A stretch of 64,000 bases of DNA from Candidatus Sungiibacteriota bacterium (lineage in GTDB: Bacteria; Patescibacteriota; Minisyncoccia; Sungbacterales; JACQCQ01). The stretch's first letter is position 1; each line of letters starts with the position of its first letter. Below the pieces are notes generated by a model. That model had not been told where the DNA came from, searched no databases, and saw only the letters and a list, made by a program, of their open reading frames with translations. The stretch covers positions 1,991 to 65,990 of the forward strand of contig JACQCQ010000009.1 in the NCBI GenBank assembly GCA_016201505.1, written 5' to 3'. This document shows, in pieces, positions 3,365-49,887 of the stretch. Made by a program: the position numbers and the translations under genes.

Positions 3365-4108
3365 ATGAGCCTTGTCGGGAGAGTCATCATCGTCGCCAGC
3401 GTTCTGGTTTTCGGATTCTCGTCCTGCGCGCCGTTCAAAGTAACGGGGGTAAAACCCGCCGCCCAGGCACAGGCCGCGGCCAGCGACTCCGCCAAATCGG
3501 CCGCTCAATGCTCGCGTACTGCGCAAGAATCGGTCGGCAAGTTTCTGGCCGGGTTGATGGAGGCCATCTGGAAATCGAGTCTCGTGCTTCTTCGTTCGGT
3601 CTTTCCGCCGGACATGAATCTTCTGCAGGCCTTCAGCGACAAGAACGACGGCGGCGAGGTGGTGAAAGCCATCATGCAATACTCGAAAGAACAAATGGGC
3701 GACCAGGTTGCCCCCGAGTACGATCCGGGGGCCGTCGTCATAGACACCGAAAACCCGCTGGTCAAGCTGGTCACGGTCCGGCGGCATATCGATCACACCA
3801 GTTACAAGACGGGCAAAACCGAGGAGTTGGATGAAGAGCGCCAATTCATGGTCATGTTTGACAGTCCGGACCGAAACTGCATCATCTGGATCCGGGCGAT
3901 TGACCCCGCTTGGAGAAGAATCAGCGAGAGCCAAACCACCGGCTCTCGTTTTATTTTGAATTATTTTTATCCGCCGTCGCAGCAGACCTCAGGCATTAGC
4001 CTAAGGGTGAGTGTGATTATGACAGATAATCTTGAGTCGAGTTTGGGAGTGGATGCTTTGGCGCCTGCTCGCCAGTGCCTGTGTCATAAGGACTCCCTAA
4101 TGTCTTAA
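3365..4108 (+). CDS. Hypothetical lipoprotein (GC-rich islet)
   Basis: Strong SD AAGGAGGTG 7 nt upstream of the ATG at 3365. Signal peptide ending ...GFSSC (lipobox-like). GC-rich codon usage unlike neighbouring genes. Confidence 0.45.
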   Translation: MSLVGRVIIVASVLVFGFSSCAPFKVTGVKPAAQAQAAASDSAKSAAQCSRTAQESVGKFLAGLMEAIWKSSLVLLRSVFPPDMNLLQAFSDKNDGGEVVKAIMQYSKEQMGDQVAPEYDPGAVVIDTENPLVKLVTVRRHIDHTSYKTGKTEELDEERQFMVMFDSPDRNCIIWIRAIDPAWRRISESQTTGSRFILNYFYPPSQQTSGISLRVSVIMTDNLESSLGVDALAPARQCLCHKDSLMS

Positions 4109-18355: not shown

Positions 18356-18545
18356 AGCGCGGGAGGTTCTTAAGGCATTGCTGGATTCCGGGTGGCGGAT
18401 CAAAAGACAAAAAGGGTCGCATAGAATTCTTAGTAAAGTTGGTTACACCAATTTCACTTTTGCTTTCCATGATCGAGAAGAAATCGGTCCCCGAATGCTT
18501 GCTCGAATTGCGAAGTATACCGATATAACTCCGGACGTGTTTTGA
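18330..18545 (+). CDS. hicA: HicA-family mRNA-interferase toxin
   Basis: LDSGWRIKRQKGSHRIL (the KGSH motif of HicA/YcfA). Overlaps hicB by 26 nt. Confidence 0.7.
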   Translation: MNMQWHAVKAREVLKALLDSGWRIKRQKGSHRILSKVGYTNFTFAFHDREEIGPRMLARIAKYTDITPDVF

Positions 18546-18731
18546 CTCTCAAACGTAATATAGGTGAGATGGGGGTAGCGTCCACGAAGGTGAGGCTCGA
18601 TTCCTCACGGGGGCGCCACCAAGAAAAAATACACCCTGGGGTGTATTTTTTCTTTGCGGTTGCATTTTTTAAATATTTGAGGTACACCAGTAACCAAGCC
18701 GAGGATAGAACAGGAAAACAGGAGGAGGCCG

Positions 18732-38551: not shown

Positions 38552-38823
38552 TTTCCGATCCTCCTGCCGCGAATGCGGCGTCCACGTTCTCTACGTGGGT
38601 TAAGGTTAGATTCGTTTGCTTGCGCTCGTATCTATCGGAAAAGGCAGTTTTTGCCTTTTGTTAGTATATTCAGCTGTCAAACAGCCTTAGTTAAGCCAAA
38701 TTTCAGGCTCAACCAACTGGCCGCTATTTTAAACTATAATTATAGTAAAAGTCAACCGCTTGTCATGGTTCAATAGCTTGGCGATAATTTACCAAAATCT
38801 AACTCCCCGTACCTACCGATATC

Positions 38824-38851
38824 TCCCTATAGTACAATATAGGTATGAAGT
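38824..38851. repeat. Inverted-repeat motif copy (RC: attgtactatagggagatatcggtagg) left of the PaaX-like gene
   Basis: Pairs with 39415-39441. A third, near-identical copy lies at 48066-48098. Confidence 0.5.
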
Positions 38852-39393
38852 CTAAGATGGGGCCCATCCAAAGTTCATTGCTTGAGGCGTTGTCCGAACT
38901 CGGCACAATCACCTACGCGGTTTTGACATCGTCGAGGAACACAAAGCTCCTGCGGCGTAAACTCGGCGCGTATGGAGTACCCAATCCGGCATTTCGCCGT
39001 TCTCTGGAGAAACTTAAGGAACGCGGCTACGTGGAATTTAAAATTATCCAGGGGGAAGAATATTTGGTACTGTCGAAATCAGGCAAAGAAAAAATGAAGA
39101 GTAAGGAAGTGCTTGAATTAAAATTGCCTCGGCAGCCAAAGTGGGACAAGAAGTGGCGCGTCATACTGTTTGATATCCCCGAGCGTTTTAAAACGGCGAG
39201 GCGTGCACTCTCATTTCAATTGCGATCGATGGGGGCCGTTCCGTTTCAGAAAAGTGTCTTTGTCTTCCCCTACCATTGCAAAAAAGAAGTCGAGTTTGTG
39301 TCAAATTTTTTCGGCGTGGGGCCATACATTCGTTATATGGAAGCCAAGATTATGGGCGATGACGAATCTTTGCGAAAGCACTTTAACCTTTGA
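38845..39393 (+). CDS. PaaX-like regulator: winged-HTH N-domain plus Cas2/VapD-fold-like C-domain
   Basis: C-domain WRVILFDIPERFKTARRALSFQLRSMGAVPFQKSVFVFP follows the Cas2/PaaX pattern (hhhhYDI..RR..L...L...G.R.Q.SVF). Family assignment is from memory. Confidence 0.45.
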   Translation: MKSKMGPIQSSLLEALSELGTITYAVLTSSRNTKLLRRKLGAYGVPNPAFRRSLEKLKERGYVEFKIIQGEEYLVLSKSGKEKMKSKEVLELKLPRQPKWDKKWRVILFDIPERFKTARRALSFQLRSMGAVPFQKSVFVFPYHCKKEVEFVSNFFGVGPYIRYMEAKIMGDDESLRKHFNL

Positions 39394-39414: not shown

Positions 39415-39441
39415 CAAACTATAGGGAGATATAGGTCGGTT
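39415..39441. repeat. Inverted-repeat motif copy (aaactatagggagatataggtcgg) right of the PaaX-like gene
   Basis: Shares the 14-nt core actatagggagata in opposite orientation with 38826-38839. Confidence 0.5.
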
Positions 39442-47645: not shown

Positions 47646-47761
47646 GAAATGGGAAATTGGAAATAGTGAATAGACGCTTGAACCAAAAAGTCGCCTCGAC
47701 TTCCGCCAGCCGGCGGATCGCGGACGATTTTTTGCTACTATCACTTCGTGACAGATCATCT

Positions 47762-47800
47762 GCGCGCATAGCTTGGTGGCAGAGCGTTCGATTTCGCGGA
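47762..47800 (+). pseudogene. Mini pseudo-tRNA (tRNA-Val-like acceptor plus D-arm joined directly to a T-loop)
   Basis: gcgcgcatagcttggtggcagagcg|ttcgatttcgcgga; the D-arm is nearly identical to that of the neighbouring tRNA-Val. Confidence 0.35.
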
Positions 47801-47834
47801 CACTTAGTTCAGTGGTAGAACGTCGCATTCATTC
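47798..47834 (+). other. 5' half of a split tRNA (acceptor, D-arm, anticodon stem tcgca and loop ttCATtc; anticodon CAT)
   Basis: Pairs with the 3' half at 47949-47983: anticodon stem tcgca/tgcga is perfect and acceptor ggacact/agcgtcc matches 6 of 7. Confidence 0.4.
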
Positions 47835-47851
47835 ATCCCATTAGATTTCCT

Positions 47852-47923
47852 GGGTGATTAGCTCAGTGGCAGAGCGTTGCATTCACATTGCAAAGGCCAC
47901 AGGTTCGATACCTGTATCACCCA
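47852..47923 (+). tRNA. tRNA-Val (anticodon CAC)
   Basis: gggtgattagctcagtggcagagcg-ttgca-ttCACat-tgcaa-aggcc-acaggttcgatacctgt-atcaccc-a. Confidence 0.8.
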
Positions 47924-47948
47924 CTCAAATAAATCTAACGGGACAAGT

Positions 47949-47983
47949 TGCGAAGGCCGCTGGTTCGATCCCAGCAGCGTCCA
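47949..47983 (+). other. 3' half of the split tRNA (anticodon stem 3' strand, variable loop, T-arm, acceptor 3' strand)
   Basis: tgcga-aggcc-gctggttcgatcccagc-agcgtcc-a. Confidence 0.4.
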
Positions 47984-48065
47984 TCGCTGGAAACACTCTG
48001 GCAAAACGCCGAAGAGACGAAATCAAAAAGAATGAATTGAAATTAGTCTCGTCTTAGACCTCATA

Positions 48066-48098
48066 CCGATATTGTACTATAGGGTAATATAGGTATAT
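48066..48098. repeat. Third copy of the attgtactataggg... motif
   Basis: cataccgatattgtactatagggtaatataggtat matches the RC of 38824-38851 at 22 of 23 positions. Confidence 0.5.
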
Positions 48099-48196
48099 TT
48101 CTATCCGCGCTCCAATTTCTGCCAACTGGCGGATCGCGAATCGATTCCGACTAAAAAAGAACGGCCCGCATGAACTTCATGGTTCATGCGGGTCTA

Positions 48197-48430
48197 TTAG
48201 GTCCCCGCTGCTTCTGCAAAAATCCAGACCTCGTCCTCCGAGCGCAGATCTTTCGGAAGCCGCGCCGGTATCCGGCCGCGATGGATAAAGTCGCACATCA
48301 GCCGATTGCCTTCGGCCCAGTTTGCTCCCAGCCCAGAGTGGTGGTACGGACAGAGCGCCTCCTCACCCTCCTCACCCTCCTCACTTCTCGTCGCGGTTAT
48401 TTCCGCGCCGCAGTAGCTACAGCGTGGCAT
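48197..48430 (-). CDS. Hypothetical zinc-ribbon protein (GC-rich islet)
   Basis: SD TAGGAGGT upstream. CxxC...CPYHH. Contains an internal 9-bp tandem repeat (cctcaccct) x2.5 encoding EEGEEGEE. Confidence 0.4.
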   Translation of the reverse strand: MPRCSYCGAEITATRSEEGEEGEEALCPYHHSGLGANWAEGNRLMCDFIHRGRIPARLPKDLRSEDEVWIFAEAAGT

Positions 48431-48593
48431 AGGAAGGACCTCCTATCTTTTTTGTATTCTTCAATCTAAATCAGGTCAAGCTCGCGGGTAGAGGAAAACT
48501 TTTATAGTTGTTCATTTTGTCTCATAAGATTCTATAGGACATTATATAAAATCTAAAGGACATCAGAGACAGTCTCATAGATGTCCTTTAGAT

Positions 48594-48610
48594 GTAACAC
48601 GTAAAACTTT
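48594..48610. repeat. Left 17-bp inverted repeat GTAACACGTAAAACTTT abutting the homing-endonuclease stop codon
   Basis: Perfect reverse complement of 49028-49044. Confidence 0.8.
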
Positions 48611-49027
48611 CTAGTAAAGGTCTGGGAACTTGAGCCTAAAGGCATCATGGAAAAATCGATATGAGGGGTTAGTAGCACTGGATTTGAATTGCTTGAACCA
48701 CCATTGGAATTGACGTTTTTTATAACCTGAAAGTTTTGGCCACAATAGAGGTATCACGATATTTTTAAGGCTGCCGATGTTTCGTACAATTAGCATCGCA
48801 TAATGGCGGCCTCCATGATGATATTCGTATACCTTTTCTGACGTTAGGCCAAGAGAGTCTCGTACATCCATAACAAGGTTATAATCCCGGATAGGCATTT
48901 TTAAGCAAAATACAGGCCGCTTATACCCGTCGCCAGCCATAGTCCAATAAAAAGTCCCTTCGCCCACTACGAGTCCAGCAACAAAATCCAAGCTCAAGGT
49001 TTCACGTGTTACGCCAATTTCAGTCAT
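48611..49027 (-). CDS. Free-standing LAGLIDADG homing endonuclease (single-motif, I-CreI-like)
   Basis: LDFVAGLVVGEGTF LAGLIDADG motif; 138 aa; markedly AT-rich compared with its flanks. Confidence 0.7.
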   Translation of the reverse strand: MTEIGVTRETLSLDFVAGLVVGEGTFYWTMAGDGYKRPVFCLKMPIRDYNLVMDVRDSLGLTSEKVYEYHHGGRHYAMLIVRNIGSLKNIVIPLLWPKLSGYKKRQFQWWFKQFKSSATNPSYRFFHDAFRLKFPDLY

Positions 49028-49044
49028 AAAGTTTTACGTGTTAC
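49028..49044. repeat. Right 17-bp inverted repeat AAAGTTTTACGTGTTAC abutting the homing-endonuclease start codon
   Basis: Perfect reverse complement of 48594-48610. Confidence 0.8.
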
Positions 49045-49091
49045 ATTGAAAGTGTGTACGGGTACTACAATTATACAAGTTTCACAAAATA

Positions 49092-49481
49092 ATGTCATTA
49101 TCTAACGCTCAAATAGCCCAGGCTGGAGAGGACGCAGCCGCCGATCTGCTCAAACAGAAGGGCTACGCTATTATTACCAGAAACTATGATCTGCCGATGG
49201 GCGAGATTGATATTGTGGCCCAAAGGAGGGGGAAACTTCGGTTCATTGAGGTAAAAGCCAGCCTTGATACATATCGGGACGTTTTTAGCCCAGAGGAGCG
49301 GGTGGATAGGCGAAAGAGGCAAAGGTTGCAGGGACTTTGTGAACTGTACTGCCTGCGGGAGGGGATTAAGCCTGGAACTGACTGGCAGATTGATATCATA
49401 GGCGTAACACTCGACACGGAGGGGAAAACCCAGCATATTGAACATATCGAAAATGCAGTTTGGGACTATAGGGGGGTGTAA
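49092..49481 (+). CDS. YraN-family (UPF0102) PD-(D/E)xK endonuclease-like protein
   Basis: GEDAAADLLKQKGYAII..GEIDIVA..LRFIEVKAS pattern of the UPF0102 family. Confidence 0.7.
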   Translation: MSLSNAQIAQAGEDAAADLLKQKGYAIITRNYDLPMGEIDIVAQRRGKLRFIEVKASLDTYRDVFSPEERVDRRKRQRLQGLCELYCLREGIKPGTDWQIDIIGVTLDTEGKTQHIEHIENAVWDYRGV

Positions 49482-49522: not shown

Positions 49523-49585
49523 GACCCGCCATAGCTCGGCTCGGCTGAATGGATTTCGCCCGCCGAAGCCGAGCTATGGCGAGGC
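49523..49585 (+). other. Long imperfect hairpin (18-bp stem) preceding tRNA-Pro
   Basis: cgccatagctcggctcggc ... gccgaagccgagctatggcg. Confidence 0.5.
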
Positions 49586-49590
49586 GAAGG

Positions 49591-49661
49591 CGGGCTGTAG
49601 TATACCGGTAGTACGCGTGCTTTGGGAGCATGTAGACTGGGTTCAATTCCCAGCAGCCCGA
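49591..49661 (+). tRNA. tRNA-Pro (anticodon TGG), C1:G72 acceptor pair
   Basis: cgggctg acceptor, anticodon loop ttTGGga (G37), T-loop ttcaatt. Confidence 0.8.
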
Positions 49662-49887
49662 TTGTAAGGATTTCTAACGGGATGAAGGAGCACGTAGTCC
49701 AAGTTCTTCGCCAGCCGGCGGATCGATAGCCCAACTAGAAAAGTCTATAAAGTCTATCTATATAAGAATTTACCCCTGCGTCCTAGGAGGACGCAGGGGG
49801 CATTGGCCGTTGTTTCACTTCAGTATCTCTTCCAGTCGGCCGATGAGGTAGACAGCGCAGTTTGGGTTATATCCCGACTGATTAAAC

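Follow-up and report, generated by a model that had tools for sequence, protein, structure and literature searches.

The window analysed here, a 64-kb stretch of contig JACQCQ010000009.1 from a metagenome-assembled genome (MAG) of Candidatus Sungbacteria, within the Candidate Phyla Radiation (CPR), carries a minus-strand open reading frame (ORF) of 138 amino acids that encodes a member of the LAGLIDADG family, stands beside the gene yraN (UPF0102), and is surrounded by copies of a long DNA motif. The element resembles a free-standing homing-endonuclease gene, and we read it, tentatively and with a probability of roughly 0.45, as a free-standing, site-specific homing-endonuclease module in which the repeats would be the enzyme's own recognition or operator sites and would mark recombination breakpoints. 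On this reading, a locus-specific element of about 18 bp would be present three times, the two 17-mers that frame the ORF being its outer copies, S1 and S3, and the module would consist, in order, of its own promoter, a 5' palindrome, S1, the LAGLIDADG ORF with S2 in presumably dispensable N-terminal codons, and S3, seated in the 5' flank of yraN. S1 denotes the copy in the 5' untranslated region (UTR), S2 the copy within the ORF, and S3 the copy after the stop codon. The parts of the module, by position in the window, are as follows.

49053..49098, minus strand: LAGLIDADG promoter region, with -35, heptad, -10 and the palindrome TGTAGTACCCGTACACA
49028..49046, minus strand: S1, in the 5' UTR, sense ATGTAACACGTAAAACTTT followed by ATG, adjoining the start codon
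48611..49027, minus strand: LAGLIDADG ORF, 138 aa, single motif GLVVGEGTF, catalytic Glu23
48996..49012, minus strand: S2, codons 5-11 (GVTRETL), 15/17 identical to S1 and a direct repeat of it
48592..48610, plus strand: S3, adjoining the stop codon, an exact inverted repeat of S1 with a fixed spacing to the M2 hairpin
48551..48593, minus strand: M2 hairpin, ATCTAAAGGACATC...GATGTCCTTTAGAT, 14-bp perfect stem, terminator-like, directly 3' of S3

The preliminary description of this DNA had reported perfect 17-bp inverted repeats hugging an AT-rich, free-standing LAGLIDADG gene, and its coordinates proved exact: GTAACACGTAAAACTTT lies at 48594-48610 on the plus strand, its exact reverse complement at 49028-49044, and the stop codon (cta, 48611-48613) and start codon (cat, 49025-49027) of the ORF between them each touch one arm. 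The repeat is longer than had been claimed, being perfect over 19 bp (48592-48610 / 49028-49046) and lengthening to 25 nt at 92% complementarity (48586-48610 / 49028-49052), and a third copy had been overlooked within the ORF, with two mismatches and in direct orientation to the upstream copy at a spacing of 32 nt. When up to three mismatches were allowed, the 17-mer matched the window three times, against 0.09 matches expected from window shuffles, and all three matches were at the LAGLIDADG gene; no further motif copies were found elsewhere in the 64 kb, where the constituent heptads occurred at background frequency. As far as the window shows, the 17-mer is therefore not a common palindrome. 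The score for an inverted repeat between start flank and stop flank was 19 for this ORF versus best values of 5-12 among 85 control ORFs of the window, the other outlier being an unrelated PaaX-like ORF with a score of 17. The GC content of the ORF (42.7%, versus 50.1% for the window) is below that of every ORF of at least 150 aa, the minimum among which is 44.9%.

The predicted protein was assigned to the LAGLIDADG endonuclease superfamily by concordant evidence, in that the acidic motif helix, a family-model match and the core fold with its DNA-binding beta-saddle are all present. With the single window sequence as query, the Pfam model LAGLIDADG_1 (PF00961) matched at E 7e-4 and 20.9 bits, slightly below its gathering score of 23.1 bits, and several homologs carry a precomputed PF00961 match. 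A profile built from 18 homologs retrieved I-OnuI-type, I-AniI and I-HjeMI chains from the PDB sequences, with E values of 6e-17 to 1e-12. The AlphaFold2 model (pLDDT, the predicted local distance difference test score, 93.2) has an alpha-beta-beta-alpha-beta-beta-alpha topology (helix 13-23, strands 24-30 and 36-45, helix 46-58, strands 66-71 and 74-81, helix 84-98), in which the whole 138 aa form the LAGLIDADG fold with no extein, and residues 1-10, including the S2 region, are of low confidence. Its top Foldseek matches were I-OnuI, I-LtrI, I-CreI and I-MsoI (probability 1.0), together with the bI3 maturase, and active homodimeric or pseudo-dimeric LAGLIDADG homing endonucleases (LHEs) share this fold. 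The family is compact, at about 135-150 aa. The motif reads LDFVAGLVVGEGTF in the window, and its G22-E23-G24 is invariant among the 18 homologs; of 32 distinct proteins from the related loci, at least 26 have it. Because the acidic residue (E23) is invariant in the former and kept in nearly all relatives, the family looks catalytically competent, in contrast to domesticated proteins of the WhiA type. IMG/VR held no relatives of the gene, and a phage origin was rejected on that ground.

The gene appears to be a transcription unit of its own. A promoter scan identified a putative minus-strand sigma-70-type promoter with an 11/12 match, whose -35 (ATGACA, 49098-49093) overlaps yraN codons 1-3 and whose -10 (TATAAT, 49075-49070) is directly preceded by the heptad GTGAAAC (49085-49079); the 5'-UTR palindrome (49069-49053) lies between the -10 and S1. 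This layout of heptad, -10 and palindrome is kept in relatives, with co-varying sequence. At the other end, the M2 hairpin has a sequence that is conserved at related loci, and its juxtaposition with S3 was found in L003, L045, L020 and L066, and also in L057, which has no LAGLIDADG gene (related loci are given here by L numbers). The M2 motif, CTAAAGGACAT / ATGTCCTTTAG (AAGGGACAT in L057), is itself sequence-conserved across Sungbacteria with two to four copies per locus, and hairpins of this type were seen in the window at 48551-48593 and 48530-48541 as well as in L003, L020, L036, L045, L057, L060, L063, L066 and L067; M2 may be a bidirectional terminator or a further protein-binding site. 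At the gathering score, Rfam returned tRNAs and no other family in the whole window, and between 47 and 51 kb no intron family appeared at E<=1, the matches besides tRNAs being sub-threshold noise. An intron- or intein-encoded endonuclease was thus ruled out by these scans, by the gene's own start, stop and promoter, and by the full-length LAGLIDADG fold, in agreement with the preliminary description, which had seen the ORF outside any intron or intein.

The position of the gene is fixed across hosts. Homologous loci were gathered by exact-protein look-ups and pattern scans, and UPF0102 was located in them by tblastn. The neighbours that matter for the comparison are the following.

49092..49481, plus strand: yraN/UPF0102, PD-(D/E)xK nuclease, Pfam UPF0102 E 3e-20, divergent neighbour of the LAGLIDADG gene
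47852-47924, plus strand: tRNA-Val(CAC), left syntenic anchor of a variable slot in Sungbacteria
49591-49661, plus strand: tRNA-Pro(TGG), right syntenic anchor, downstream of yraN

In nearly all loci with sufficient flank, from about 30 diverged CPR lineages whose LAGLIDADG proteins are 40-69% identical, UPF0102 was found divergently upstream of the LAGLIDADG gene, and the adjacency persists at about 40% LAGLIDADG and 27-40% UPF0102 identity. The exceptions are L022, where the arrangement is convergent, L051 (35% identity), where about 490 nt of upstream flank held no UPF0102 match, and L054 and L056, the most distant LAGLIDADG relatives (at most 32% identity). The wider order in Sungbacteria is tRNA-Val, a variable segment, yraN, tRNA-Pro and, farther on, tRNA-Gly. 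The ORF is therefore conserved at this locus in distant relatives, mostly together with repeats, so that of the refuting observation named in the preliminary description (conservation here in distant relatives that lack the repeats) one half is seen and the other mostly is not. Non-CPR yraN loci (L070, L072) had neither the LAGLIDADG gene nor the motif. The preliminary description had placed the gene between a tRNA-Val locus full of tRNA fragments and tRNA-Pro, as typical insertion hotspots; both tRNAs and the half-fragments around tRNA-Val are indeed present, but the conserved partner of the gene is yraN/UPF0102 and not the tRNAs.

As for those fragments, two tandem pieces resembling 5' halves (about 47753-47835) precede tRNA-Val, a 3'-half fragment that is 75% identical to the 3' half of tRNA-Val follows it (47948-47983), and a 13-nt inverted repeat (47836-47848 / 47931-47943) encloses the intact tRNA-Val. 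Duplicated 5' halves of tRNA-Pro occur similarly in L057, L063 and L066, and all these fragments look like scars of repeated recombination at the slot. The 9-mer CTAACGGGA/TCCCGTTAG occurs 11 times in the 64 kb versus about 0.5 times expected (10674, 10779, 12022, 47935, 49674, 56802, 56896, 56909, 57003, 57016 and 57232), including right after tRNA-Val and right after tRNA-Pro. Between yraN and tRNA-Pro, a perfect 15-bp hairpin (49527-49581, CGCCATAGCTCGGCT ... AGCCGAGCTATGGCG, 25-nt loop), whose sequence is not conserved in L057 and L063, could be a terminator or processing element.

The search of relatives for the 17-mer, which the preliminary description had proposed, showed that lineage-specific variants of it recur at the yraN-linked loci of about 30 CPR lineages. 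The consensus of 54 copies from the flanks of about 30 distinct loci, T-GTAAAAC-GTGAAAC-AT, is about 18 bp long and consists of two GTRAAAC-like heptads; it is a partial palindrome (ATGT-nnn-ACGT-nnn-ACAT) in which 6/9 position pairs of the 18-mer are palindromic. The variant is GTAACAC-GTAAAAC in the window, GTCAAAC-ATGAAAC in L003, GTAATAC-GGGAAAC in L013, GTAAATT-GTGAAAC in L031, GTTTGTC-ATGAAAC in L036, GTAATCC-GATAAAC in L030 and ACTTTTCAC-GGGAAAC in L066. It changes fast between closely related Sungbacteria, and the copies within one locus stay fully or nearly identical (for example, 19/19 positions in the window, 15/15 in L003, 17/17 in L023 and in L036, 16/16 in L066, and four identical 15-mers in L031). 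In most lineages one copy lies 0-7 nt ahead of the start codon and another follows the stop codon at a constant spacing to M2; copies or half-sites are also seen at the -10 and within the 5' UTR and the first codons, and additional copies lie just past the 3' end of yraN in several lineages. In L022, L024 and L025, two copies upstream of the -10 flank the promoter and one occupies codons 3-9. Over this last copy the third codon positions of the three genes are 7/7 identical, versus 28-43% over the rest of the gene, at an overall nucleotide identity of 68-72%, so that, judged from these substitutions, the in-ORF copy is constrained at the DNA level; the protein segment that it encodes is disordered in the structural model.

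The preliminary description had also offered a transcript whose ends pair around the ORF, and this holds in prediction for the present genome and is not conserved across the family. S1 and S3 would pair in the mRNA as a closing stem of 17-25 bp that occludes the region 5' of the AUG and/or serves as an element of RNase III-type processing or stability, for which the stems framing rRNAs and intervening sequences are a precedent. Both arms lie within the predicted transcript, from the -10 (49075-49070) to M2; the S1:S3 stem appears in the minimum free energy fold of 48540-49075(-) and in its centroid fold alike (z = -3.1); and in at least eight lineages perfect or near-perfect inverted arms of differing sequence resemble compensatory covariation. 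When compensatory changes between S1 and S3 were sought among the population single-nucleotide polymorphisms of 12 contigs of the L003 species, seven columns were variable, none of them within the motif. The copies are inverted in at least 10 lineages and direct in L026, L028, L031 and L048, and those upstream of the -10 in L022, L024 and L025 would not be transcribed; inverted and direct copies and copies flanking a promoter fit DNA sites and do not fit an obligate RNA stem. Moreover, distant lineages share the motif at the level of sequence, for which a stem has no need, the mismatches in the imperfect S1/S3 pairs of L038, L020 and L030 (G-G, C-A or A-G) are not wobble pairs, S2 and the promoter-proximal heptad are left unexplained, and loci without the gene keep the motif. 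We consider this explanation unlikely.

Direct evidence of module replacement comes from pairs of related loci. Overall, LAGLIDADG and UPF0102 identities correlate poorly (Spearman 0.27). L020 and L066 are 98.4% identical in DNA from about yraN codon 7 onward (732 bp) and, on the other side, 87-90% identical up to the last base of the M2 hairpin, which is the left edge of the exchanged block; the middle 600 bp or so, comprising S3, the ORF, S1, the promoter region and the first six yraN codons, cannot be aligned. The UPF0102 proteins of this pair are 93% and the LAGLIDADG proteins 44% identical, and the motif variants differ (GTAAAACATGAAAC vs ACTTTTCACGGGAAAC). Therefore, the unit exchanged here was the whole expression module, including the repeats. 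Between L003 and L045, homology runs through yraN and the promoter region, ends inside S1 and resumes at the stop codon and S3; by this alignment the exchanged unit is S1 plus the ORF, with breakpoints at motif copies, which explains why S1 and S3 of L045 are mismatched. In this recombinant module of L044/L045 (L045 ORF at about 1068-1496), the motif reads GLVEGAGC, with the catalytic Glu replaced by Ala, which suggests an inactivated copy heading to decay. Truncated LAGLIDADG genes were found in L047 and L052, and three loci with the tRNA-Val...yraN-tRNA-Pro synteny (L057, L067 and L068) have no LAGLIDADG gene, the slot of L057 being partly taken by a NUDIX gene. Presence and absence, degenerate copies and horizontal replacement are thus all seen at a single genomic site beside yraN. 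The idea of a mobile cassette put forward in the preliminary description was broadly right, because relatives show the gene exchanged or lost here with breakpoints at or beside the repeats, but the repeats are not simple termini: further copies of the motif are found within the ORF, ahead of the promoter, past yraN and in gene-less loci, and their orientation (inverted or direct) differs by lineage.

The same comparisons bear on the possibility that a host transcription factor, e.g., a competence regulator, controls yraN through the motif as its operator, and that the LAGLIDADG gene was inserted into a repeat-rich region and borrowed its N-terminal codons from it. Copies upstream of yraN persist in loci that lack the LAGLIDADG gene, others lie downstream of yraN in several lineages, S1 sits just upstream of the putative yraN -35 with a 1-nt overlap, and winged-helix, TrmB-like and PaaX-like genes are found near several loci. 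YraN resolves transformation D-loops and in other bacteria belongs to the regulated competence functions (bioRxiv 10.1101/2024.02.06.579203). A trans-acting host factor would not be expected to leave distinct motif variants and architectures in L020 and L066, whose flanks are 98% identical, nor does such a factor sit well with the rapid change of the motif among close Sungbacteria whose within-locus copies remain identical, with the absence of other copies from the 64 kb, or with non-CPR yraN loci that lack the motif. A host operator therefore seems quite unlikely to us.

Somewhat less likely again, and decidedly doubtful, is a proposal that builds on the same neighbour, in which LAGLIDADG and yraN would be a CPR-specific pair, either a cut-and-replace cassette spread by natural transformation or an enzyme domesticated as a sequence-specific regulator of yraN and of recombination linked to competence. 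In the former version, the endonuclease would cut cognate sites on both sides of a resident cassette, be it a rival or a decayed one, and the D-loop nuclease YraN would help to install the incoming single-stranded copy. Either version, if true, would represent a new wiring of a homing endonuclease into a host recombination pathway.

The loci without a LAGLIDADG gene are relevant to one more alternative, namely that the arms are the two halves of one long palindromic homing site that was split by insertion of the ORF at its symmetry centre, leaving the occupied allele immune; the unsplit palindrome of empty alleles would then be the target of a homodimeric LAGLIDADG enzyme. In the window the arms hug the ORF exactly. 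In L057, two inverted motif copies at 3948-3993 form a perfect palindrome of 46 bp, GCGTTCCACGTGAAAGTTTCACG / TTC / GTGAAACTTTCACGTGGAACGC (the right arm being GTGAAACTTTCACGTGGAAC joined to GC), which lies 10 nt ahead of the yraN start; its arms agree with the window arm at 13/19 positions, and the 22 bp at its centre are themselves nearly a perfect palindrome. In L067, about 52 nt separate two inverted copies. The L057 palindrome may represent a homing target that is still intact, a hairpin with a regulatory role, or the scar of a deletion, and the motif copies of gene-less loci may in general be virgin sites or products of decay. L057 and L067 each have a further copy at the S3 position by M2, and their palindromes lie 10-17 nt from the yraN start and not where the ORF stands in occupied loci; moreover, either arm by itself makes up a complete site with partial symmetry, and a split site explains neither S2 nor the direct-repeat lineages. 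Between the S3-position copy and the palindrome of L057 there is a candidate C-terminal LAGLIDADG remnant (39 aa, 22.3 bits, reached by 1/200 shuffles), an unreliable match equalled by a spurious one in the unrelated L070. Altogether, we regard a split site as very unlikely.

That the arms are terminal inverted repeats or recombination sites of a transposon- or integron-like cassette moved by a recombinase encoded elsewhere is hardly credible: the tight framing superficially resembles miniature inverted-repeat transposable elements (MITEs), insertion sequences or attC sites, but there is no target-site duplication, the sequence past the arms extending the inverted symmetry with no direct repeat, no second copy exists in the 64 kb, no transposase or integrase was found among the neighbours, the heptads GTTTCAC/GTGAAAC (GTRAAAC/GTTTYAC) do not fit the integron attC core-site consensus GTTRRRY/RYYYAAC, and the family occurs at one type of locus only, beside yraN. 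A transposable element or MITE and an integron gene cassette were both rejected on these grounds.

Returning to the free-standing homing-endonuclease module, it behaves as such a gene would, with one site, block replacement, occasional truncation and absence from some syntenic loci. A recogniser encoded by the module itself, where the LAGLIDADG gene is the only ORF, is suggested because the copies are long (15-19 bp), partly symmetric, identical within and divergent between modules, because the motifs track the LAGLIDADG variant between otherwise near-identical genomes, and because the motif is constrained at synonymous sites. We infer that the motif copies are DNA sites for the LAGLIDADG homodimer, which would bind them and, in appropriate alleles, cleave. 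Those around the promoter, the start and the end of the gene would act as operator or immunity sites. Autoregulation or immunity would fit the places where copies lie (near the -10, within the 5' UTR and the first codons, and next to the yraN -35), and I-TevI offers a precedent; occupancy of these sites would limit expression of the nuclease and perhaps co-regulate yraN, since S1 borders on the putative yraN -35. Breaks and recombination during homing would take place at related sites in rival or empty alleles, and the overlap of copies with exchange breakpoints suits such a role.

Several points weigh against this interpretation. Linkage, i.e., hitch-hiking of flanking DNA, could by itself make motif variants travel with LAGLIDADG variants. 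A head-to-tail pair of heptads is not a symmetric homodimer site, given the 6/9 palindromic pairs, and if the copies in and around its own gene were cleaved, the enzyme would destroy that gene, so that a state of binding without cutting must be assumed. The motif persists without the gene in cis, in that L057, L067 and L068 retain several copies, among them one at the M2-adjacent S3 position in L057 and likewise one in L067. No pair of loci with and without the LAGLIDADG gene and with near-identical flanks, such as would define a pristine empty site, was found, the three gene-less loci being at most 77% identical in DNA to any occupied locus and not alignable with them in intergenic regions. 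Finally, the motif scan of the source genome covered 64 kb, and the motif may yet belong to a genome-wide regulon.

Parts of this arrangement have parallels in known systems. Free-standing endonuclease genes of phage T4 (SegF/SegG, MobE) reportedly undergo intronless homing. The present element shares several traits with them: its endonuclease ORF is small and AT-rich, has a promoter of its own and occupies an intergenic slot next to a conserved gene, it is polymorphic for presence, absence and replacement, and its exchange tracts end in the conserved neighbour (here at about yraN codon 7). SegF, SegG and MobE differ in being GIY-YIG or HNH enzymes of phages, and their genes are not known to be framed by a repeated cognate-looking motif, whereas here a LAGLIDADG gene resides in a CPR chromosome. 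I-TevI is said to repress its own promoter via an operator that resembles its homing site, and the role proposed for S1, S2 and the promoter-proximal heptad would be similar, a target-like site at the enzyme's own promoter being bound without cutting; I-TevI is a GIY-YIG enzyme with one operator, while this module has at least three candidate sites, including the in-ORF and post-stop copies. Promoter-early stem-loop (PeSL) cassettes reportedly mediate the modular shuffling of small ORFs in T4-type phages, and the bracketing of a small ORF by conserved promoter and stem-loop repeats that serve as recombination substrates can be compared with the breakpoints at S1, S3 and M2, but PeSLs are generic, multi-copy and associated with many ORFs, whereas this motif is tied to one locus and one gene family, with which it diverges. 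HO (F-SceII), also a LAGLIDADG enzyme with a free-standing gene, makes a cut that sets off the replacement of a variable cassette between conserved flanks; unlike the present family, it is intein-derived, has two domains and acts within one genome. WhiA is a LAGLIDADG fold turned site-specific transcription factor, with two degenerate domains plus a helix-turn-helix and with its catalytic acidic residues lost, while the window family keeps the catalytic Glu. A further parallel is I-ShaI, a single-domain LHE of the CPR that is an active homodimer cutting its own insertion site (PMC11270868), from which it is clear that enzymes of this class can be active and mobile in CPR hosts. It shares with the window protein the single LAGLIDADG domain and the host radiation, but genes of its type lie inside group-I-like insertions of 16S and 23S rRNA genes, and the window gene lies outside introns, with a promoter, beside a protein-coding gene and framed by a motif; free-standing or palindrome-framed cases are not mentioned in that work (PMC11270868).

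Some further features of the window and of the related loci were recorded. Between the tRNA-Val fragments and the LAGLIDADG module, a 77-aa ORF (48197-48430, minus strand, GC 61%), also called in contig L002, has Cys/His pairs (CSYCG...CPYHH) and an acidic EEGEEGEE run, and its sole match was a weak RMF-like one in Pfam (E 1e-3, below the cut-off). The 22-mer TTCCGCCAGCCGGCGGATCGCG has three copies around the locus (47701-47722, 48117-48138 and 49706-49727). A 23-nt imperfect inverted repeat (ACCTACCGATATCTCCCTATAGT / ACTATAGGGAGATATAGGTCGGT, 38812-38846 and 39417-39441) encloses an ORF of 182 aa with a PaaX_M (Cas2-like) domain at 38845-39393, and a palindromic element related to that repeat, ACCGATAT-N14-ATATAGGT, occurs three times in the window, including 18519-18565 and 48065-48094, the latter about 500 bp from the LAGLIDADG gene. 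Perfect DnaA-box 9-mers (TTATCCACA) number 11 in 130 kb of related loci versus about one expected (among them L013 944 and 1019; L016 3895 and 4400; L026 718; L028 463; L041 2466; L067 30 and 62). Most of them are at module edges, where they directly precede the yraN start, come right behind the LAGLIDADG stop codon, or are fused to the AAAGGACAT motif. The window locus has no DnaA box, no GC-skew switch and no switch in gene orientation, and a replication origin was accordingly not favoured as a reading.

In the literature searched on LAGLIDADG proteins in CPR bacteria, on YraN/UPF0102, and on free-standing LAGLIDADG genes with inverted repeats, this arrangement is not described; as far as we could find, the constant association with yraN, a promoter-to-terminator module studded with its own lineage-specific motif, and the direct evidence of module replacement are new. 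Free-standing LAGLIDADG genes are poorly documented in bacterial chromosomes, and those of the CPR have so far been within rRNA insertions (PMC11270868). The present loci define a compact family that is tied to one chromosomal site and each member of which seems to carry candidate recognition sequences around its own gene. If these sites are cognate, the family would supply a large set of naturally matched enzymes and sites, built on a minimal homodimeric meganuclease scaffold and obtained with no need for biochemical screening, for use in specificity studies and engineering. Because the constant neighbour YraN resolves transformation D-loops (bioRxiv 10.1101/2024.02.06.579203), a link between homing and natural transformation is directly testable here, and cognate sites would also make these modules a tractable case of self-control and exchange of a selfish nuclease in organisms that are thought to depend on DNA uptake.

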